Sequence record: PZ151149.1
DNA length: 64,000 nucleotides
Source of the DNA: a phage
Reading direction: 5' to 3' (one strand)
Shown here: positions 4,733 through 56,684 of the stretch, piece by piece
Layout: the number at the start of each line of letters is the position of its first letter
Numbering within the stretch: position 1 is the first letter of the stretch
The notes under the pieces: model-generated
What the model saw: only the letters and a program-made list of their open reading frames with translations
Told to the model about the DNA's origin: nothing
The model's database searches: none
Position numbers and translations under genes: made by a program

Positions 4733-4757
4733 TTTAATACTCCTTTGTAGTTTCGAT

Positions 4758-4798
4758 GGGGGTATATTACTACCCCCGTTTTGACGTGTCAACTACTT
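4758..4798 (-). promoter_or_regulatory. early sigma70-type promoter (TTGACA-17-TAATAT)
   Basis: -35 at 4787..4792 (rc TTGACA), -10 at 4764..4769 (rc TAATAT); -10 embedded in palindrome GGGGGTA..TACCCCC. Confidence 0.45.
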
Positions 4799-5038
4799 TT
4801 TCAAGAATTTTTTGAGTACATTCCAAAGACCTTTATTCTCGGCTTGTTTTGGTTCTTCGATCAGTGTCCATGTTCGACCGTCTAAGTGTGCACAATTTTT
4901 AAGGCAAATAAAAATCTGGTGTCCCTTATCATCACGGATATAACCACTATTCGCAAATCTTTCATGTGGTGTATATTCATACAGTGTATTCGGTGTAATA
5001 TACTTGCGGTTACTATAAGGTGTCGTTACATATTTCAT
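4793..5038 (-). CDS. hypothetical protein, paralog family
   Basis: ITPNTLYEYTP...GYIRDD...CAHLDGRTW pattern shared with 5035..5229. Confidence 0.55.
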   Translation of the reverse strand: MKYVTTPYSNRKYITPNTLYEYTPHERFANSGYIRDDKGHQIFICLKNCAHLDGRTWTLIEEPKQAENKGLWNVLKKFLKK

Positions 5039-10386: not shown

Positions 10387-10421
10387 TTTGATACTCCTTA
10401 GTAGTTCGTGTTTCGTTTCGA

Positions 10422-10462
10422 TGGGTGTATTATGATATACACCCTATCGTGTGTCAACAACT
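10422..10462 (-). promoter_or_regulatory. early sigma70-type promoter (TTGACA-17-CATAAT) with conserved leader
   Basis: -35 at 10452..10457, -10 at 10429..10434 (reverse complement); palindrome GGGTGTATA..TATACACCC over -10; leader ATCGAAACGAAACAC. Confidence 0.55.
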
Positions 10463-10465
10463 TTT

Positions 10466-10654
10466 TTAGTCTTTTTTCATAATTTCTAGGGCAGTTTCTA
10501 CCGCACCTTTCCAACCTTCCCACATAATGGACATAGTGATGAAGGTAAAGCACCCGCAGGAATCAGCCTTTTTAGAAATAAACCATTCTACAAACTCTTC
10601 GCTCATACCATGCTCTTTAGCGGATTCGCGTAATTGTTCAATTTTGTCTTCCAT
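10466..10654 (-). CDS. hypothetical protein
   Basis: 62 aa ORF. Confidence 0.5.
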   Translation of the reverse strand: MEDKIEQLRESAKEHGMSEEFVEWFISKKADSCGCFTFITMSIMWEGWKGAVETALEIMKKD

Positions 10655-11343: not shown

Positions 11344-11382
11344 AATTTGATTCTCCGTTTAAGAAAGTGTGTTTCGTTTCGA

Positions 11383-11423
11383 TGGGTGTATTATGCTATA
11401 GGCGGGGTCTGGTGTCAACAACT
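11383..11423 (-). promoter_or_regulatory. early sigma70-type promoter (TTGACA-17-CATAAT) with conserved leader
   Basis: -35 at 11413..11418, -10 at 11390..11395; leader ATCGAAACGAAACAC. Confidence 0.55.
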
Positions 11424-11448
11424 TTTTTCAAAAAAATTTAGGCAATAA

Positions 11449-12743: not shown

Positions 12744-12902
12744 TTATTTGCTAATCGCTAAACCTAATCCGAAGAGAGCACCCGACGCTACAGTATACCC
12801 GAAAGTTTCAAATGCAGTAAAGATATCTAAGCCACCAGCTAACAGAGTTGCAGTAAACAGAGTACCAGCTACGAACATAAAAGTTTTACCGATAAATTTC
12901 AT
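12744..12902 (-). CDS. small membrane protein (52 aa, below ORF-track cutoff)
   Basis: Manually translated MKFIGKTFMFVAGTLFTATLLAGGLDIFTAFETFGYTVASGALFGLGLAISK; AAAGGAGA RBS; downstream of promoter 12927..12967. Confidence 0.4.
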   Translation of the reverse strand: MKFIGKTFMFVAGTLFTATLLAGGLDIFTAFETFGYTVASGALFGLGLAISK

Positions 12903-12926
12903 CTTGATTCTCCTTTCGTTTGTTTG

Positions 12927-12967
12927 TGGGGGTATCTTACTACCCCCGTTTCATGTTGTCAACTGTT
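12927..12967 (-). promoter_or_regulatory. early sigma70-type promoter (TTGACA-17-TAAGAT)
   Basis: -35 at 12957..12962; -10 weaker; same GGGGGTA..TACCCCC palindrome as at 4761..4777. Confidence 0.4.
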
Positions 12968-12968
12968 T

Positions 12969-13346
12969 TTAAGAAAATTTTACTTCGTCTACAATGTCTT
13001 TCATGACATTGATTTCCATTCCGGTCAGAACACGTTGGAACATGTGCTGCACATACGCTTTCAGGTATTCATTTGATGGCTTACTATCGAAAGTCTTTTT
13101 AGTGTAGTAGTCATCACCGAAAGCTACTGTAATTACATTTTCGTCGTCGTTCCAAGCGATATAAGCAAATTTGCCGTTATCCCAGAAGCGAGCACTAATT
13201 GCTACTTTTGTTGAATCGAATCCTACTTCGCTGTGAGATTCAAGAACTACTTGCGTACCAGTTTCTTTATGAATGTAGTAGCGGGATACTAAGTCAAAGT
13301 TACGGGTGTAGTGACATTCGAATTTATCTTTAAACATCATCATCAT
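12969..13346 (-). CDS. hypothetical protein
   Basis: Start at MMMMFKDKF with AGGAGA RBS; upstream part of track ORF overlaps the promoter. Confidence 0.6.
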   Translation of the reverse strand: MMMMFKDKFECHYTRNFDLVSRYYIHKETGTQVVLESHSEVGFDSTKVAISARFWDNGKFAYIAWNDDENVITVAFGDDYYTKKTFDSKPSNEYLKAYVQHMFQRVLTGMEINVMKDIVDEVKFS

Positions 13347-13376
13347 TTTGATTCTCCTAAGTGTGTTTCGTTTCGA

Positions 13377-13417
13377 TATGTGCATTATGCTATAGTCGTT
13401 TATGGTTGTCAACAACT
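13377..13417 (-). promoter_or_regulatory. early sigma70-type promoter (TTGACA-17-CATAAT) with conserved leader
   Basis: -35 at 13407..13412, -10 at 13384..13389; leader ATCGAAACGAAACAC then AGGAGA and ATG. Confidence 0.55.
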
Positions 13418-13423
13418 AAAAAC

Positions 13424-15508: not shown

Positions 15509-16042
15509 CTAAAAATTTAAACTAGCATAATCTCCAAAATGTTCCTTTGCTGCTTCGTCATAAGCCTTTGCAGCATCAACTTCGTCAAGAAAGACGCCCA
15601 AATGGACCTTTCTACGATTGATTGATATCTGAGCACACCATTTGTTATTCTGTGTTCTAATCACTCCTTTATACTTACTCTTACAACCATCAAGTTTTCC
15701 GCGATTGAATGCATTTTCCTGAGAAGTGGATTCTCTCAAGTTATCCGGTGCATTATTTTCTCGGTTTCTATCTATATGGTCGATCATTTTAACTTGCGTA
15801 CCATGTTCAAGATACCAAACAACCCTATGAACTTTAATGACCAAAGAATAGCCATCACTGCGCCAAAACTTAAAACATAGATAACCTCGACTATTTTTAT
15901 AAACTTTAACCGGGTCTCCTGCCTTATACCATCGACCATTCTTTCCACTATCTTTCAAATGGTACAATATACCATTAACGTGTTTATACTTATCTCTAAT
16001 TTCTTTTTGTGTAAAATCATCCCACATCTTAAACCCAGACAT
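15509..16042 (-). CDS. HNH homing endonuclease with C-terminal AP2 DNA-binding domain
   Basis: IDHIDRNRENNAPDNL (HNH) and YKGV...KWCAQISINRRKVHLGVF...AAKAYDEAA (AP2). Confidence 0.8.
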   Translation of the reverse strand: MSGFKMWDDFTQKEIRDKYKHVNGILYHLKDSGKNGRWYKAGDPVKVYKNSRGYLCFKFWRSDGYSLVIKVHRVVWYLEHGTQVKMIDHIDRNRENNAPDNLRESTSQENAFNRGKLDGCKSKYKGVIRTQNNKWCAQISINRRKVHLGVFLDEVDAAKAYDEAAKEHFGDYASLNF

Positions 16043-16157
16043 ACATTTTCTCCTGATAATATTATTAATAACAACATCAATCTAACATATCTAGTATATA
16101 ATGTCAATTGTCGCTTTGCGACGTGCCGTAGGCACTGACTACTTTTTAACCGAAACA

Positions 16158-16192
16158 AATTTTCTATATTCTAAAGATCTTTCTTCGTTTTG
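16158..16192. repeat. intergenic repeat element, copy A (contains palindrome AAAGATCTTT)
   Basis: 35-nt near-identical match to 53111..53145; shares CGAAACAAATTTT with 52963..52975. Confidence 0.6.
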
Positions 16193-16262
16193 GTTATGTT
16201 TTAACCAATAACTATATTTTTATACAGTAATAAATAAAACTGGTACTATACGAGGACTTCTT

Positions 16263-16517
16263 ATGACAGAAGACATTTTGTTAAAACTCTATGATCGTTT
16301 GGATAACGAATTAGCAACATTGCGGGGTGAAGTTCTCTATTTGTCTAAATGCAATACAGATCTGATTAAGCAGATTGCCGAAAGGGATGACCAAATAAAA
16401 TCCCTTTCAGGCGCATTACGTGATCGCGACAAGGCATTAGAGATTTTACAGCGTGTAACCAATAAAGAAGAGTTGAAAGACTTTCTACATGGTTATGCTC
16501 ACGCCATCGATCTATAA
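16263..16517 (+). CDS. small coiled-coil protein
   Basis: 84 aa helical ORF followed by terminator. Confidence 0.55.
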   Translation: MTEDILLKLYDRLDNELATLRGEVLYLSKCNTDLIKQIAERDDQIKSLSGALRDRDKALEILQRVTNKEELKDFLHGYAHAIDL

Positions 16518-16546: not shown

Positions 16547-17575
16547 TTAATATGTATCAGCTAATTTAATTATGTTATCAAGTTCCGTGATTGGTAAAGT
16601 TTCTGTGTATCCATCTTTCAACATGGATTTATCAACAACGCCACAATGATAAGTTCTCTTTATTTCCTTTTCAAGTTCCCACGGAATCCAGCCATCAACA
16701 CTTTGTTTGACGTAAACAAGTTTGTGAACAAACTTAGATTTCTGCATATGTTGTTTCATTCTGGTTTCCGGTAATTCATTGGTTACACCAAACTTTATAA
16801 ATTTATCATCTAACGTCTGGATATAAAAATATCCCATCTCAGATGGACGATAGCCAGAAGAACTACATTTCGGACACCCTTTAGCATTTCTGTTGAACGT
16901 ACAATATCTTACAGAAAATTCGGCGTCATGTTTTGTACATTTAAGTTTTATCCATGAATTTGCAGTACCTATCCATTCACCATCGACACCTATATATTCA
17001 TACCCTAACTTTTTACATTTATCTTCTATTCTAGATAGTGCATCTTCCACGGGAACGACATATTCCGTCTTAAATTGTTCAGCCGCACATTTCTTACAAC
17101 CACATGTACCATGATTTTTAAAATCAAAGAACTTTGTATTCTTCCAAATATGGTCATGTTTCTTGCATCTAAGAATCATCTTAGTAATTTGTGATTTCCA
17201 GCCACCAACAAATCCCAAAAATTCATAATCAAGATCTTTACATTTTTCTTCAATGAATTTGGTTGCTTCATCTTCTGTCATAACTCCCCTACATTGAGGG
17301 CAACCAACAATAACCTTTTTAGCATAGAAACTATTACTGGAAACATCATAGACAGTTCCATGCTTATTGCATTGGATAACAGATCTAGTCAATTTTCCTT
17401 TCCATTCTCCAGTAAATCCTAAGAATGTATGGTCGACAAGTTTACATCTTTCAATAACTTTATCTGCAAACTCTCTAGGAGATTTTGTTACCTTGTTTAC
17501 TCTGTATTCTATTTCTTCCGGTTGACGAAGATCATAAACGTGGGGATTTCTCCCCACGGAATTAATATTAAGCAT
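16547..17575 (-). CDS. homing-endonuclease-like protein: three tandem zinc-ribbon modules plus C-terminal T5orf172/GIY-YIG-like domain
   Basis: Three repeats FLGFxGxWKxxxT...C.KH...CxxC; C-terminal GYFYIQT...KFGVT; start at 17575 with AGGAAGG RBS. Confidence 0.6.
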   Translation of the reverse strand: MLNINSVGRNPHVYDLRQPEEIEYRVNKVTKSPREFADKVIERCKLVDHTFLGFTGEWKGKLTRSVIQCNKHGTVYDVSSNSFYAKKVIVGCPQCRGVMTEDEATKFIEEKCKDLDYEFLGFVGGWKSQITKMILRCKKHDHIWKNTKFFDFKNHGTCGCKKCAAEQFKTEYVVPVEDALSRIEDKCKKLGYEYIGVDGEWIGTANSWIKLKCTKHDAEFSVRYCTFNRNAKGCPKCSSSGYRPSEMGYFYIQTLDDKFIKFGVTNELPETRMKQHMQKSKFVHKLVYVKQSVDGWIPWELEKEIKRTYHCGVVDKSMLKDGYTETLPITELDNIIKLADTY

Positions 17576-18390
17576 CTTTCCACACCTTCCTTGCATCATA
17601 GTTTTTACCTTTAGAAACAAATTTATATGTGTTAAGGTAGATAATATTGCTCCAGTCTTTCGGGCTAATCTCAACAAGTTTTGTTTTAATGTGTCCCGGT
17701 AGATATGCTTTGATCATGTGGTCACTACCACGCATACCTTTTACATCACTCCATTTAATCTTCAAGCGTGTTTTATTGCTCAAGGTAGGAGTAGATGCAT
17801 ATTGCTTTAAAAGTGCTTCCAGAAACTGCTGACGGGCTTTAGGCGTTACATAGTGTAAGTTAAGACCCAGCATTACAGTATTACCCGCCTTTGTCTTAGA
17901 ATCACCCAGACAAATGATCAGCGGGAAAACATCCCAATATGGCAAAGTATCTTTATACTTCGCATCATACATAAAGGTATAGATTCGCCCTACTTGCGGT
18001 TTTACAATCTGGTGTCCCTTTATTCCAGCTTTTATTGTTTTAGTAAACCACTCCTGTGATTTTTCTTTAGGACGACTCTTTGATACAGCACGCATAGACG
18101 CACGAAAATCATTAATCATCATCATTGCGCGTTGCTGCTTATTGAGACCCTTTGCACCTTTCCCTTTTAGTTTTTCAACTTCTATTGCTGTTTTAATTTC
18201 GCTGGCATAACGAGACATACTTTTAGTGAAAGTCGCATAGGCTATTCCCTTAGAATCTGCAAATGCTTTAGCTGTCATTCCTTTGGCTTTTGCTTTCGCA
18301 AATTCTACACCCAATTCGACCCACTGTTTAGACTTTCGCTTTTGGGGAGACGGCTTTTCGTCTTCTGTGATTATTTCAAATACGCTCATA
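17568..18390 (-). CDS. protein at T4 gene 2 position (DNA end protector-like)
   Basis: 274 aa from internal Met MSVFEII; length and position match T4 gp2; not verified. Confidence 0.45.
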
Positions 18391-20621: not shown

Positions 20622-22421
20622 ATGCTAATGTTTAATAACTCCGTTAAATGGTTTACCGGAATTGTAGAAAACAGGGAAGATCCATTAATGCTGGGGCGCG
20701 TTCAGGTTAGGATTCATGGTATACATCCTTCGCTATCCGCACACGGTGACATTCAAGGTCTCCCAACCGAAGATCTATTATGGATTACGCCAGTACAAGA
20801 CATTACAAGCGCGGCGATCTCCGGTATAGGTCAAAGTCCTACTGGTATTGTTGAAGGTTCAATGGTATTTGGATTGGCTTTAGATGAACGTTATTTAAAC
20901 TGCGTTATTCTGGGTACTATTGCCGGACAATATACAGAGAAACCACTCACTACAGAAGGTTTTTGTGACCCTTCGGGTGCATATCCTCGTTATATTGGTA
21001 ATGATGTTAATATTCTTGCCCGTGGCGGTATTAACCCAGAAACCGGACAAACAACAAAACCTGATAGTGTCTATATTCGAGATGAAAACACTGGAGTTGC
21101 AGTAAATCCAGACGACGAGCCATTAGATCAAATTCCGGTTGATGATAATCCTGATTTTACAATAGAAAAAATGCTTCGTGGCGATGAGGGATATCGTGAG
21201 AAATGGTATCTTGATTCAGAAGGATATCCGACAATAGGCATCGGGCATTTGATCATTTATAAGAAAACCAGTGATCTGGGTATTATCAATAATGAACTTT
21301 CTAAGCTGGTAGGGCGTGAAGTTACAAACGGAAGACTTACCGCCGAAGAAGTTAGTAAAGTATTTGCCGACGATATAGAAAAGACCCGTCGTGATATGCG
21401 CAAACATCCACGAATTGCACCTGTCTATAATAAATGTAATGCTTCTCGTCGTATGGCATTAGAAAATATGGCGTTTCAAATGGGCGTTGGTGGATTGGGT
21501 AAATTTAAGAATAGCCTTGCTGCAATGCTAGCAGAAGAATGGAAACAAGCCTATGATGGATTACGTCAATCGGTATGGGCTAACCAAACTCCAGGACGCG
21601 CCAACCGTGTTTCTAAAATTATTCTTACTGGTAACTTAGAATCATATGGCGTAATTGCTCCTAAGAAAGAGGAATCAATTTCTGATGATCCGAGAGCACG
21701 TTTGAGAAAAACCCGTATTGCTGCATATAAGACGCAGAGAGCAGAAGAAGACCCAGAAGCACCGTTTACCCCACAAGATACACGAATCATGTTTAAAGAG
21801 CCTAAGAGTTCGTATTCTGCAAGGTATCCATATAACCATGTGTACGAGTCAGAGAGCGGTCATATTATCGAGATTGATGATACTCCTTCTCATGAGCGAT
21901 ATCATCGTAAACATCCTTCTGGTACATTTGAAGAAACCAGACCGGACGGAACGAGGGTAGAAAAGATTGAAGGTGATGATTATCTGATCGTTAAACAAGG
22001 CCGGAAAGTAAACGTTAAGGGTAATTTGCAAGTTGTTGTTGAAGGTGACGCGCAAGTTTATTATATGGGTAATGTGATGCAAACCGTTGATGGTAACGTC
22101 ACGGAATTTATTCGTGGTAATGTTAATCAGACCGTTGAGGGTACAGCTAATATGCATGTTGTAGGTGATGTTACCGCTCAGCTTGACGCTAATTTAACGG
22201 CTAATGTCAAGGGTAATGCTGAATTAATGATCGAGGGTAACACTACCGAAACAATTAAAGGTAACTATGATTTAACCGTTGAGGGTAATTTTAATATGAC
22301 CGTCAATGGCACTAAATCAGATCAGGTTAATGGTGACTGGTCCCGTAATTGTGGTGCAAGCGTTAAAGATATTGCATCGGGTACAGTTAAAATTGATGGT
22401 AGCCGTATTGATCTTGGGTGA
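20622..22421 (+). CDS. 5: baseplate hub subunit and tail lysozyme (gp5)
   Basis: N-terminal WFTGIVE...GRVQVRIHGIHP, lysozyme domain YLDSEGYPTIGIGH, C-terminal VxGxxxxx beta-helix repeats. Confidence 0.92.
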   Translation: MLMFNNSVKWFTGIVENREDPLMLGRVQVRIHGIHPSLSAHGDIQGLPTEDLLWITPVQDITSAAISGIGQSPTGIVEGSMVFGLALDERYLNCVILGTIAGQYTEKPLTTEGFCDPSGAYPRYIGNDVNILARGGINPETGQTTKPDSVYIRDENTGVAVNPDDEPLDQIPVDDNPDFTIEKMLRGDEGYREKWYLDSEGYPTIGIGHLIIYKKTSDLGIINNELSKLVGREVTNGRLTAEEVSKVFADDIEKTRRDMRKHPRIAPVYNKCNASRRMALENMAFQMGVGGLGKFKNSLAAMLAEEWKQAYDGLRQSVWANQTPGRANRVSKIILTGNLESYGVIAPKKEESISDDPRARLRKTRIAAYKTQRAEEDPEAPFTPQDTRIMFKEPKSSYSARYPYNHVYESESGHIIEIDDTPSHERYHRKHPSGTFEETRPDGTRVEKIEGDDYLIVKQGRKVNVKGNLQVVVEGDAQVYYMGNVMQTVDGNVTEFIRGNVNQTVEGTANMHVVGDVTAQLDANLTANVKGNAELMIEGNTTETIKGNYDLTVEGNFNMTVNGTKSDQVNGDWSRNCGASVKDIASGTVKIDGSRIDLG

Positions 22422-30791: not shown

Positions 30792-30817
30792 AAGCCGTCC
30801 TTGTGGGCGGCTTTTTT
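30792..30817 (+). terminator. intrinsic terminator
   Basis: AGCCGTCC-TTGT-GGGCGGCT hairpin plus T6. Confidence 0.55.
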
Positions 30818-30827
30818 GTATGTATTT

Positions 30828-52246: not shown

Positions 52247-52567
52247 CTAAATATCTAACCAAGACAAGTCAGATCCGCCCAAGATTTTTTCGACGGCGGA
52301 TCTATTTTCTTGATGATATAAGTTAAAACATGGTATCCCATGTCTACGGGCAACATAAACAGCAATTCTAGTTCCTCCCGAAACGATTCCATTAACTTCT
52401 TTCGCCCAAAATAACACACAATCTACAGGATCATCAAGTGTCTCACCTAAGACTTGAGCAACATTTCTAGAAAACAGATTTTGCATGTATAACGGTATAG
52501 AACGAGGATTATCATAAACGTGTTCTAATTCATCCATCGCCAGATTTTTTGTTCTAAGGTTTGCCAT
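52247..52567 (-). CDS. DprA/SLOG-like Rossmann-fold protein, C-terminal segment
   Basis: SRN...SGGTRIAVYVARRHGIPCF resembles the C-terminal DprA/Smf motifs. Confidence 0.55.
   Translation of the reverse strand: MANLRTKNLAMDELEHVYDNPRSIPLYMQNLFSRNVAQVLGETLDDPVDCVLFWAKEVNGIVSGGTRIAVYVARRHGIPCFNLYHQENRSAVEKILGGSDLSWLDI
52270..52304. terminator. hairpin between convergent genes (possible bidirectional terminator)
   Basis: AGATCCGCC...GGCGGATCT 9-bp stem with 15-nt loop, T-rich after. Confidence 0.4.
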
Positions 52568-52833
52568 GCAATAACATCATGACCGTTATGCTTGTGGTCA
52601 TAAAACTTCCAATTTGGAATGAAAATTTTTCTATAATCTGGATCGTAATACTTCATGAAAGCATTGTCCATACCGTAAGCCCCTCCAGAATGCGCTACAA
52701 CGCGATTTTCTGACAATACCCTCCCAATGGTACTAGCCATTATCAAAATGTCGCTAGGCGCTTTTCTAGAGCCTATTAAAGCACATCTACGAAGTGGTTT
52801 TACTCCAAATAGATCTTGTAACTGGTCAAACAT
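52525..52833 (-). CDS. DprA/SLOG-like Rossmann-fold protein, N-terminal segment
   Basis: ALIGSRKAP and VVAHSGGAYGMD resemble DprA GSR and SGxAxGxD motifs; GGAGG RBS. Confidence 0.55.
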   Translation of the reverse strand: MFDQLQDLFGVKPLRRCALIGSRKAPSDILIMASTIGRVLSENRVVAHSGGAYGMDNAFMKYYDPDYRKIFIPNWKFYDHKHNGHDVIAWQTLEQKIWRWMN

Positions 52834-52959
52834 AATATTTCCTCCATAGAAAGCAATATCATACTACAAGTTAATAACAAATACAAGTATCCGCGTAGCG
52901 GAAGCGAGCACAGCGAGCAATAAAACACTTCCAGTAATTGATTAATAAATGTTCGAAAC

Positions 52960-53011
52960 AAATTTTTATTATTCTATAAGATAAGTCTTCGTTTTGATCA
53001 TAATTTAATCA
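52960..53011. repeat. intergenic repeat element, copy C
   Basis: CGAAACAAATTTT plus TCTTCGTTTTGATCATAATTTAATCA shared with copies at 16151 and 53135. Confidence 0.5.
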
Positions 53012-53110
53012 TACATGTAAAAACTACACAAAAGGATATCGCTTCGCGAACTCCTACGGAGTATAACATTTGTGTTACAATATGTAGTGAGTAATAATTA
53101 ACCAAAGATA

Positions 53111-53160
53111 CATTTTCTATGTTCTAAAGATCTTTCTTCGTTTTGATCATAATTTAATCA
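53111..53160. repeat. intergenic repeat element, copy B (contains palindrome AAAGATCTTT)
   Basis: 35 nt near-identical to 16158..16192, then 26 nt identical to 52986..53011. Confidence 0.6.
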
Positions 53161-53246
53161 AACAGTATTAATATTGTGCACATGTAAACTAAAATTATGT
53201 TAATAACATATACAAAAAAGCCGCCCAGAAGGACGGCTAATGTTAA

Positions 53247-53684
53247 TTATTTGTTGATAACGATCTGATTTCGGCGAATGGTAACATTACTCTTAGAGAT
53301 GATCAGATCATCCGGCACGACGTTAGTTTTGTATGGTTGGAAGCGAACAAGCATCTGATTGCGTTTAGACCCTTCCTTAATCTTGATCTCCATCTGGATA
53401 TTGTTGCCTACGTGAGCAACCGCAATTTCACCTTTATTCTCATAGACCCACTTGATGGTAACGTCTCCAGCAAAAGCCTTAATAACTTGCAATGCTTCGT
53501 CGTATGCGGTAGAGCTGTGAACTTTCAGAAGTCCAGCCGTAGCAAGACGGGAGCAGGTGATCGCCGGAGATTGCCAAACATCAACATTAATTTGCTCAAT
53601 CAGAGTAACACCGCCCTGATCAACTGCTTTGAATGCTTCGAACATTGCCTTTTTCATTGCTACGTGGTTTTTACGGAATTTCAT
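53247..53684 (-). CDS. hypothetical protein
   Basis: 145 aa ORF, no recognised motif. Confidence 0.55.
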   Translation of the reverse strand: MKFRKNHVAMKKAMFEAFKAVDQGGVTLIEQINVDVWQSPAITCSRLATAGLLKVHSSTAYDEALQVIKAFAGDVTIKWVYENKGEIAVAHVGNNIQMEIKIKEGSKRNQMLVRFQPYKTNVVPDDLIISKSNVTIRRNQIVINK

Positions 53685-53730
53685 AATTAGTCACCTCTAT
53701 TGATTAGTTATTCAGAATATTAATTACAAA

Positions 53731-54322: not shown

Positions 54323-54363
54323 GCGTGCCATTATAGGCATCTAAATAGCTCTGTCAAGCACTA
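54323..54363 (-). promoter_or_regulatory. sigma70-type promoter (TTGACA-17-TATAAT)
   Basis: -35 at 54353..54358 and -10 at 54330..54335 on minus strand. Confidence 0.5.
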
Positions 54364-54369
54364 AAAACA

Positions 54370-54392
54370 AAAAAGCCACCCCGAAGGATGGC
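54370..54392 (-). terminator. intrinsic terminator after hoc
   Basis: AGCCACCCCGAAGGATGGCT hairpin with T6 on minus strand. Confidence 0.5.
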
Positions 54393-54404
54393 TGATAGAT
54401 TTCA

Positions 54405-55958: not shown

Positions 55959-56684
55959 TTACTTGAGTGTGTGGAATTGGCTATGTTTAGTCTCTCGCAC
56001 CTTGACAGACCCATCGCGTTTGATATAATAGATCAGTGACTTGAGGGTGTCGTGTACATACGCGTGCGGGAAACGCTCTGGATACTTCTTCCAATCTGGA
56101 GTATTAACGATCCAGTCGAAGATCCACCACGGGCAGGAGTAGTAACCACGACCGCCACCGATCAAGCAAATGGTCGGACGGAAGCCAGTAAGATCGCAAA
56201 ATGAATCAGTGTCATGTGCGGGGGGACGATGTTCTGCTTCGTCAGAGAAAATGTTTGCTACCGGAGATTCCACTTTAACTTCCGGTGCTTCTTCAACATC
56301 TGACTTAACTTCTTCAACCACTGGTTCAACTGTTGGAGATTCTTCTTTTGTTTCTTCAATGACGATCTCAGGTTCTTTCATTGCTTCAACCAGAGACGGG
56401 TCAACTTCGTCGAATACCACTTTATCATCTGCGGTGTCTGTTGCCAGAATAAGATCGTTAATACTGGTTCCTTCTGCCGGAGTTTCTTCTTCCATTTCGG
56501 AAGCCAGTTTAGTTAATTCGGTTTCTACGAACTCGATCATGTTCTCTAGTGATAAAGTCTTTTTGACCTTAATATCAAATTGTTTTGCGTAGTCCGCTAA
56601 TTCTGTTTTAGCTGTTTTCTGTGCTTCTTTGTCGTCGGACGCCGCAATAGCGCGGAGTTCTTCGAAATATTCTTTATCAAACAT
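55959..56684 (-). CDS. protein at T4 inh position (acidic middle, conserved-looking C-terminal domain)
   Basis: 241 aa between hoc and uvsW; positional assignment only. Confidence 0.4.
   Translation of the reverse strand: MFDKEYFEELRAIAASDDKEAQKTAKTELADYAKQFDIKVKKTLSLENMIEFVETELTKLASEMEEETPAEGTSINDLILATDTADDKVVFDEVDPSLVEAMKEPEIVIEETKEESPTVEPVVEEVKSDVEEAPEVKVESPVANIFSDEAEHRPPAHDTDSFCDLTGFRPTICLIGGGRGYYSCPWWIFDWIVNTPDWKKYPERFPHAYVHDTLKSLIYYIKRDGSVKVRETKHSQFHTLK

Follow-up and report, generated by a model that had tools for sequence, protein, structure and literature searches.

The stretch of DNA analysed here in full (the window; 64,000 nt of sequence record PZ151149.1) belongs to a Krischvirus, that is to an RB49-like (T4-type) coliphage, and its positions 52400-53700 match 59 phage records at 95-99% identity. 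Within this region an AT-rich intergenic gap separates a homologue of RB49p165 from a DprA-like gene, the counterpart in RB49 being positions 97435-97847 between RB49p164 (DprA-like) and RB49p165. The features of the locus are as follows:

52247-52833, minus strand: DprA-like gene (195 aa; weak match to PF02481, below the Pfam cut-off)
52834-53246, no strand: ORF-free AT-rich intergenic gap (413 nt) flanked by the p165 homologue and the DprA-like gene
52858-52886, minus strand: candidate promoter of the DprA-like gene, with -35 TTGTAT (52886-52881), a 17-nt spacer and -10 TATGAT (52863-52858)
52890-52902, minus strand: hairpin of repeat copy B, TCCGC-TAC-GCGGA, with a GTA loop on the plus strand
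52938-53012, minus strand: core of copy B (nhmmer E=5e-15, aligned at 53011-52938), a diverged tandem duplicate of copy C with a 149-nt period
53039-53062, minus strand: twin mini-hairpins of copy C, ACTCC-GTA-GGAGT (53062-53050) and TCGC-GAA-GCGA (53049-53039)
53086-53161, minus strand: core of copy C (nhmmer E=1e-17, aligned at 53160-53086), the 75-nt AT-rich imperfect palindrome TTGATTAAATTATGATCAAAACGAAGAAAGATCTTTAGAACATAGAAAATGTATCTTTGGTTAATTATTACTCAC
53219-53238, minus strand: intrinsic terminator of the p165 homologue, AGCCGTCC-TTCT-GGGCGGCT followed by TTTTTTG
53247-53684, minus strand: p165 homologue, upstream of the gap

That the gap is strongly AT-rich, as had been read from the letters alone, is borne out by a GC content of 29.8% versus 40.4% for the window, with a lower value in just 54 of 63,588 windows of equal size. 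It is also the longest interval of the window without an ORF of at least 60 aa, and the earlier claim that it holds no ORF on either strand is accurate at that length, although it is overlapped by two short TTG-start ORFs (52800-52961, 53 aa, and 52998-53105, 35 aa). Both of these are interrupted by single-base indels in other Krischvirus genomes (at 52837, 52921 and 52933 in the 53-aa ORF, and at 53019 and 53029 in the 35-aa ORF), so neither is conserved as a coding sequence. Searches of the gap for tRNA, tmRNA and Rfam families (Rfam 15) gave no match, with sub-threshold noise over the terminator. A conserved small ORF or non-coding RNA that could account for the region, which the sequence-only reading had named as the finding that would overturn it, was looked for in the gap and not found. 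Some GenBank records annotate 'hypothetical protein' features within the gap.

The gap lies upstream of the DprA-like gene (the RB49p164 homologue), as had been stated. In the window this gene is frameshifted by a T missing at 52544 relative to 13 other Krischvirus genomes, which splits it into ORFs of 106 and 102 aa and could reflect either a real pseudogene or a sequencing error. On the other side, the terminator of the p165 homologue lies about 57 nt upstream of the copy C core, and it is annotated as a terminator in the GEC-3S, G2248 and Makalu records. Near-identical intrinsic terminators of the form AAAAAAGCC(A/G)CCC-loop-GG..GGCT are reused across the window, at 144-185, 30793-30821, 53219-53238 and 54352-54393.

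The gap holds two tandem copies of a composite cis-acting DNA element that occurs in four copies at three loci in RB49-like phages. Positions 52978-53015 and 53127-53164 are 89% identical with a start-to-start spacing of 149 nt, and copies B and C have an exact 26-mer in common, for which 0 matches are expected in 100 shuffles even when up to 3 mismatches are allowed. The two repeat copies about 150 bp apart that had been noticed by eye are therefore real, but they are part of something larger, as a core of approximately 75 nt per copy together with adjacent GC-rich mini-hairpins makes up a unit of approximately 150 nt (sense on the minus strand), and a profile search (nhmmer) found exactly four copies in RB49, three of which are in the window. 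The two further copies are these:

16134-16208, minus strand: core of copy A (nhmmer E=5e-21), the least stable 100-nt stretch of the window
16110-16135, minus strand: twin mini-hairpins of copy A, GTGCC-TAC-GGCAC (16135-16123) and GTCGC-AAA-GCGAC (16122-16110)
16107-16079, minus strand: copy A promoter TTGACA-17-TAGATT, 2 nt past the hairpins and flagged by the scan
RB49 150000-150100, outside the window: copy D, between genes 35 and 36

The core is an imperfect palindrome, exemplified by TTGGTTAAAACATAACCAAAACGAAGAAAGATCTTTAGAATATAGAAAATTTGTTTCGGTTAAAAAGTAGTCAG, with an outer stem TGGTTAA / TTAGTCA, an inner stem TAACCAAAACGAA / TTTGTTTCGGTTA and the centre AAAGATCTTT, this central palindrome being degenerate in copy B. 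Three blocks of the core are invariant, namely CAAAACGAAGA, ATCTT and TAGAA. Copies A and D are 95% identical across 99 nt and their flanks are unrelated; terminal inverted repeats and target-site duplications are absent at the boundaries of this similarity, and on these grounds a MITE or IS-derived element was rejected. Iteron-like families are absent from the gap, where the sole repeat is the 149-nt B/C duplication. Among other candidates considered, IHF and DnaA boxes do not fit (by eye), an element-encoded peptide of 8-10 aa is possible in copies B and C only (by eye), and a retron-like or CRISPR-repeat-like decoy RNA had no supporting feature. At window position 53091 a G stands in place of the T found in all 13 other genomes, giving an outer-stem mismatch in core C (sense TTAATCA to TTACTCA).

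Comparison with related phages, which had been proposed as a check, places the loci of A, B/C and D at the same sites in all 59 Krischvirus records. The stretch containing the copy C hairpins (53030-53072) has no variable column among 14 genomes. Compared with the spacers, the element shows greater conservation within the genus when changes are counted per column (p=2e-5), but the difference is not significant per event, with adjacent changes taken as single events (p=0.36).

Copy A lies in a divergent intergenic region between either an HNH gene or gene 3 (minus) and the p130 homologue (plus, 16263-16517). The HNH gene (window 15509-16042, minus) encodes a 177-aa homing endonuclease with HNH_3 and AP2 domains and is inserted between gene 3 and copy A; it has the TTGACA-17-TAGATT promoter as its own, is found in 2 of the 59 records (AV108 and phiS), and its junction with RB49-type sequence lies 5 nt after the copy A hairpin. 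Between p130 and gene 2 the window additionally carries a gene for a 376-aa protein with CapR homology domains (16547-17677, minus), which is absent from RB49 and lies in a stretch labelled 'endonuclease' or 'GIY-YIG nuclease' in some relatives. The CapR-protein and HNH genes being optional, copy A is therefore flanked by two optional nuclease-like genes. We also observed that the GenBank records of Skers, pEJ01 and kvi all start their numbering at approximately window 16227, some 19 nt to the right of the copy A core, which could stem from an assembly that broke at the 99-nt A/D inverted repeat or from a common re-orientation convention.

Each core is followed, 0-35 nt past its end, by one or two GC-rich hairpins with stems of 4-5 bp and loops of 3 nt. 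Tandem pairs of such GC triloop hairpins occur just three times in the whole RB49 genome, at copies A, C and D; in copy B a GCGAGCA direct repeat (two units, 52905-52920) adjoins the single hairpin at the place where a second would be expected. The hairpin is kept between copies though the stems vary (GTGCC, ACTCC and TCCGC), and in copy C both hairpins have C(GNA)G triloops on the sense strand. A census of GC-rich hairpins (4-bp stem, 3-nt loop) returned 65 in RB49, seven of them in the elements, and a C-GNA-G loop (on either strand) was present in 6 of these 7 versus 3 of the 58 elsewhere in RB49 (Fisher p=7e-6). The longer GC-rich hairpins of RB49, terminators included, mostly have tetraloops. 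Mini-hairpins of the GCGNAGC and CCGAAGG types are extraordinarily stable as DNA, are located at the primase-dependent complementary-strand origins of G4, St-1 and alpha3, at RSF1010 ssiA and at the hairpin promoters of N4, and when two of them are consecutive they are poorly bound by SSB (review, PMC13037366). In T4 (NC_000866, position 155814) a hairpin ACCC-TTC-GGGT occupies the gene 35/36 spacer, the same position as copy D in RB49, and is one of two GC triloop hairpins of the C-GNA-G type in the 119 kb of T4 analysed.

When 100-bp stretches are ranked by nearest-neighbour duplex energy, the three lowest places for stability go to copies A, B and C, both in the 164-kb RB49 genome and in the window; copy D is in the top 0.8% least stable of RB49, and the gap is the least stable 400-bp window. 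In the control, the annotated oriE, oriF and oriG of T4 were unremarkable in duplex stability, and the analysed 119 kb of T4 had no tandem mini-hairpins. Because this control failed, helix instability is not validated as a predictor of origins.

The elements are set into their surroundings in a recurring manner. All four copies are oriented in the same way as the downstream gene, intrinsic terminators precede copies C and D, divergent genes flank copy A, and the last hairpin of copies A, B and D is followed at 2-16 nt by a promoter-like site. For copy B this is TTGTAT-17-TATGAT, which starts 3 nt past the hairpin and was read by eye, as it falls below the 9-of-12 threshold of the promoter scan; it is a plausible but weak candidate promoter of the DprA-like gene. 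Past the copy D hairpins lies a late promoter, TATAAATA, with gene 36 downstream, and no promoter follows the hairpins of copy C. The scan also flagged a plus-strand promoter-like site, TTAATA-16-TAAAAT, at 53168-53195. The sequence-only reading had suggested that the gap may be the regulatory region of the DprA-like gene, and the weak sigma-70 promoter after the copy B hairpin keeps this plausible for the gap itself; the element, however, is not DprA-specific, being found also upstream of gene 3 (or the inserted HNH gene) and of gene 36. Neither the promoter scans nor the layout of terminators and genes revealed a promoter directed into any core, and the element spacers probably lie outside the main transcripts. 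A promoter inside the core itself was considered (plus strand, TTGGTT or TTGATC, 16-17 nt, then TATATT, TATAAA or TATTAA); it scored 8 of 12 only, and as a conserved function it was rejected because the -10 hexamers lie outside the unit conserved between copies and two are without the final T. Matches to a late promoter within or before the core were partial and inconsistent. Our literature search found no Krischvirus transcriptome paper.

Outside the genus the element recurs in a single other setting. A blastn search of the gap against phages, set for distant matches, returned Krischvirus only, and a scan of species-representative genomes for the element gave 0 matches. A looser pattern built from the invariant blocks (CAAAACGAAGA NNN ATCTT N0-1 TAGAA) matched approximately 22 viral contigs of 17-45 kb besides Krischvirus, with one copy each, and a metagenome scan and a third viral scan found the element in the same two families only, Krischvirus and an E. 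coli prophage family. The prophage homologue matches the Krischvirus core profile over its full length (nhmmer E about 1e-11) and is then followed by twin hairpins, GCAACC-GAA-GGTTGC and ATCCC-GAA-GGGAT. This uncharacterised prophage of approximately 36 kb is carried by 58 of the 5,426 complete genomes of E. coli; in strain PE15 it sits in hicB, integrated by a serine recombinase. It is without a close isolated relative, the terminase of the nearest isolated phage being 43% identical, and megablast of the region of its element against the collections of phages and plasmids gave no match.

In the prophage the element opens an ORF-free region of 1.2-1.4 kb between divergent genes, in which C(GNA)G hairpins are followed in order by 7-9 iterons (350-450 bp from the element), a conserved AT-rich tract and a strong promoter that leads to a small ORF and a protein of 313-331 aa. 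Further C(GNA)G hairpins of this region lie on both strands and are arranged as an inverted repeat. The iteron type differs between prophage variants, being AGTGTAGGTTT, TTTCAGGGGCAAAAAT or CCTTGTACATC, and the element is constant; the variant iterons occupy the same position in the contigs L036 (9860-9985), L051 (about 21550-21750) and L032. The 331-aa protein is common only to two prophage variants with GTGTAGG-type iterons. The downstream protein of 313-331 aa thus appears to vary together with the iterons, which suggests a swappable pair of iterons and binding protein that is without database annotation. The layout of the region is that of an iteron-type origin. Pfam and PHROGs gave the flanking proteins no replication or DNA-binding assignment, and the candidate initiator of 313-331 aa has no recognisable domain; the region could instead serve regulation, packaging or partition.

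Several genes are common to the Krischviruses and the prophage family, namely a tail fibre (42% identity), an inh-like fragment (87%) and a p262-like gene (58%). The prophage tail-fibre genes (L051 6312-10923 versus RB49 151341-154650) are 30-43% identical to gp36/gp37-like proteins, and in RB49 the gp36/gp37-like genes begin immediately past copy D. Another prophage protein, of 147 aa, has 87% identity to part of RB49 Inh and 74% to that of the window (L052 6287-6730 versus 56127-56453). In PE15 the prophage (L051 23947-28600) carries an ISApl1-mcr-1-PAP2-ISApl1 composite transposon, conferring colistin resistance, just downstream of the gene for the 313-aa protein.

Every paralogue, like the prophage copy, can fold on its sense strand into the same long imperfect hairpin. 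In an alignment of 20 distinct related sequences, 86.5% of cells are paired under the named structure; the figure is 85.0% in shuffles and no more than 49% when the structure is slid along the alignment. Against column shuffles the consensus fold reaches -5.2 kcal/mol (z=-9.5) on the sense strand versus -1.7 kcal/mol (z=-3.0) on the antisense strand. The base pair of columns 16 and 60 appears as U-G, C-G or U-A in both phage groups, and polymorphisms also break pairs of the fold, such as the C-A found in the contigs L032 and L040. As these sequences are related, AT-rich and few, a conserved single-strand fold is suggestive only.

What might such an element do? Our preferred reading, held tentatively and with well under even confidence, is that it may be a module acting at the level of DNA in unwinding and priming, of the origin type or the single-strand-initiation (ssi) type. 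The AT-rich core would be the easiest site of the genome to melt; once it was opened, its arms and the adjacent mini-hairpins would fold in the exposed strand, which could thereby become a structured landing or priming site for replication proteins, for example a primase or a helicase loader. We infer the unwinding in vivo, the formation of the hairpins and any role in priming or replication from the features set out above. On this view a T4-like phage that does without MotA-dependent origins would have in the element a site of the origin or single-strand-initiation type. No motA is present in the RB49 annotation, and because of this T4 origins of the oriF/oriG type cannot apply to RB49 (PMC3016281). 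The origin-type reading fits the insulation from transcription, the extreme composition, the DNA-specific type of hairpin, the prophage context and the absence of motA. Several points stand against it: no promoter feeds the core, which leaves the R-loop scheme of T4 without its transcript; the phage itself is without iterons, and in the prophage they are 350-450 bp away from the element; the blocks that are invariant in all copies and in the prophage argue for sequence-specific recognition, for which pure unwinding has no need; and, counted per mutational event, the excess of conservation over the spacers within the genus is not significant. The suggestion that the gap may be origin-like is accordingly compatible with the helix instability, the C(GNA)G mini-hairpins and a prophage homologue next to iterons, but low duplex stability alone misses the known origins of T4.

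Comparison with characterized systems gives a similarly mixed picture. The ssi signals of the G4, St-1 and alpha3 origins and of RSF1010 oriV (ssiA and ssiB) contain mini-hairpins of the GCGNAGC/CCGAAGG type, as the element does (PMC13037366), and in RSF1010 these signals lie on both strands near iterons and an AT-rich tract, an arrangement also seen in the homologous prophage region. Measured against the GCGNAGC/CCGNAGG mini-hairpin that marks ssi signals, 6 of the 7 element hairpins are of the C-GNA-G kind, from which priming itself is at most predicted. The hairpins of the element differ from ssi signals in being shorter and in being paired with a conserved AT-rich palindrome, and sequence homology to them is not established; when the RB49 annotation and the examined prophage genes were read, without a dedicated search, no RepB'-like primase was noted. 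T4 origins, like the element, comprise several sites per genome in late-gene regions with an A+T-rich unwinding segment, and the three loci in RB49 map to within about 3-6 kb of the gene contexts that hold oriE, oriF and oriG in T4. The T4 origins have no common sequence motif (PMC3016281), whereas the RB49 element copies are homologous. As at oriF and oriG, an A+T-rich unwinding element is present, though the T4 control shows that this is not specific to origins; the promoter transcript that enters the unwinding element at oriF and oriG has no equivalent here, as terminators or divergent genes lie upstream of the cores. Nor does the gap contain the evenly spaced short direct repeats of iteron-type origins (lambda, plasmids and the T4 oriE region). 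Finally, the N4 virion RNA polymerase recognises promoters in which a hairpin with a 5-bp stem and a 3-nt G-purine-A loop is extruded from supercoiled DNA (PMC13037366), a form similar to that of the element; with no N4-like virion RNA polymerase in the RB49 annotation, the likeness is one of hairpin form alone.

Taking the origin-type reading a step further, and with less confidence still, we consider it possible but doubtful that the four elements are the sites at which RB49-type phages start replication independently of MotA, and that they represent a portable module which virulent T4-like phages have traded with the iteron-type origin region of temperate coliphages. Such a module would combine a sequence-specific AT-rich unwinding palindrome with C(GNA)G mini-hairpins that act as priming or loading signals.

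The closest rival to DNA-level unwinding, which we likewise rate as doubtful, is a promoter-proximal cassette with a regulatory or insulating role. It would be the late-region counterpart of the early promoter plus stem-loop (PeSL) cassettes known from RB49 and phi1 (Arbiol et al. 2010, PMC2839356), and in the gap it would be the control region of the DprA-like gene. It is an equally uncertain proposal that, in such a cassette, the A-tract-rich core would be bent or protein-bound upstream DNA and the GC hairpins would block read-through before the next promoter. The promoter-like sites 2-16 nt past the last hairpin in A, B and D would be expected of this arrangement, the invariant blocks suit a protein-binding site, and the copy B hairpin was flagged as terminator-like by the scan. 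However, 30-130 nt separate the core from the -35 box downstream, too great a distance for an UP element; as intrinsic terminators, hairpins with stems of 4-5 bp would be short, and strong terminators already precede C and D; the copy C hairpins have no promoter after them; and the downstream promoters differ in class (early sigma-70-like versus the late TATAAATA), which implies no single regulator. The bias towards GNA triloops also has no obvious role in an insulator. PeSL and the element are both repeated intergenic motifs of the same phages that bring together an AT-rich tract, a stem-loop and a promoter, and both may be sites of modular exchange. They differ in that PeSL contains a sigma-70 consensus (TTGACA / TATAAT) within the motif, whereas no promoter was flagged in the core; in that the PeSL stem-loop is usually polyG...polyC (GGGG...CCCC), whereas the element has mixed GC stems of 4-5 bp with GNA triloops; and in that PeSL loci are hyperplastic regions upstream of ORFans, whereas the element sits in conserved late modules (gene 3/2, 24/hoc and 35/36). 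Separate repeats of the PeSL type, with TTGACA...TATAAT and a stem-loop on the minus strand, are found in the window at 100-159, 4743-4802, 10408-10467, 11369-11428, 12899-12981 and 13363-13422.

It is unlikely, in our view, that the element acts as a structured RNA in sense read-through or polycistronic transcripts, its AU-rich hairpin of approximately 20-25 bp being a processing site, for instance for RNase III. Just as unlikely is the corollary that processing would leave the twin GC hairpins as protection at a 5' or 3' end. An RNA would account for the shared orientation of the four copies with their downstream genes, for the same long sense-strand hairpin in all paralogues and the prophage homologue, for the better consensus fold on the sense than on the antisense strand, and for the U-G, C-G and U-A states of pair 16:60 in both phage groups. 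Yet the covariation is modest (86.5% versus 85.0% when shuffled) among related sequences whose polymorphisms break pairs, no Rfam match was obtained, and no promoter was found in front of the core, while the terminators before C and D and the gene 36 late promoter downstream make the main transcripts exclude the element. GNA triloops, moreover, are notable for the stability they lend to DNA and not to RNA, and the long GC-rich hairpins of this phage mostly have tetraloops. The intergenic RNase III sites of T7 are dispersed, mutually similar imperfect hairpins about two helical turns long that lie inside transcripts, whereas the element is apparently excluded from the main transcripts by terminators and promoters.

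We regard as similarly improbable a selfish or passively spread recombination module without a function of its own, a short patch of homology that would move from one coliphage to another with neighbouring genes and mediate mosaic exchange. The 95% identity of A and D over 99 nt between unrelated flanks, the tandem duplication of B and C, the genes common to Krischviruses and the prophage family, and the HNH cassette (2 of 59 records) that begins 5 nt from the copy A hairpin are all in keeping with such a history. On the other hand, the four copies occupy fixed loci in 59 of 59 genomes, their architecture is kept despite differing hairpin sequences, terminal inverted repeats and target duplications are absent, and neither the extreme composition nor the bias in hairpin type is expected of a neutral patch. 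Of the earlier suggestion that the gap may be a recombination site, what survives is the homing-endonuclease junction beside the copy A hairpin and the evidence of gene flow. That a small protein, or a small RNA gene with transcription of its own, is encoded in the gap, as the 'hypothetical protein' features of some records and the plus-strand TTAATA-16-TAAAAT at 53168-53195 might suggest, is very improbable given the indels that disrupt both small ORFs in relatives, the lack of a tRNA, tmRNA or Rfam match, and the lack of a consistent promoter-terminator pair across the four copies.

The PeSL literature on these phages covers other repeats, and we found no description of this element in the literature searched. 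Current annotation omits it, and in some records it appears wrongly as hypothetical proteins. Were it to prove an insulator or an RNA element instead of an unwinding and priming site, it would still be a conserved non-coding module common to virulent and temperate phage groups. Homologous at three loci, defined at nucleotide resolution, built of hyperstable DNA hairpins and recurring in an iteron-bearing region of a prophage, the element offers a sharply defined, testable candidate for the replication or priming sites of MotA-less T4-like phages.
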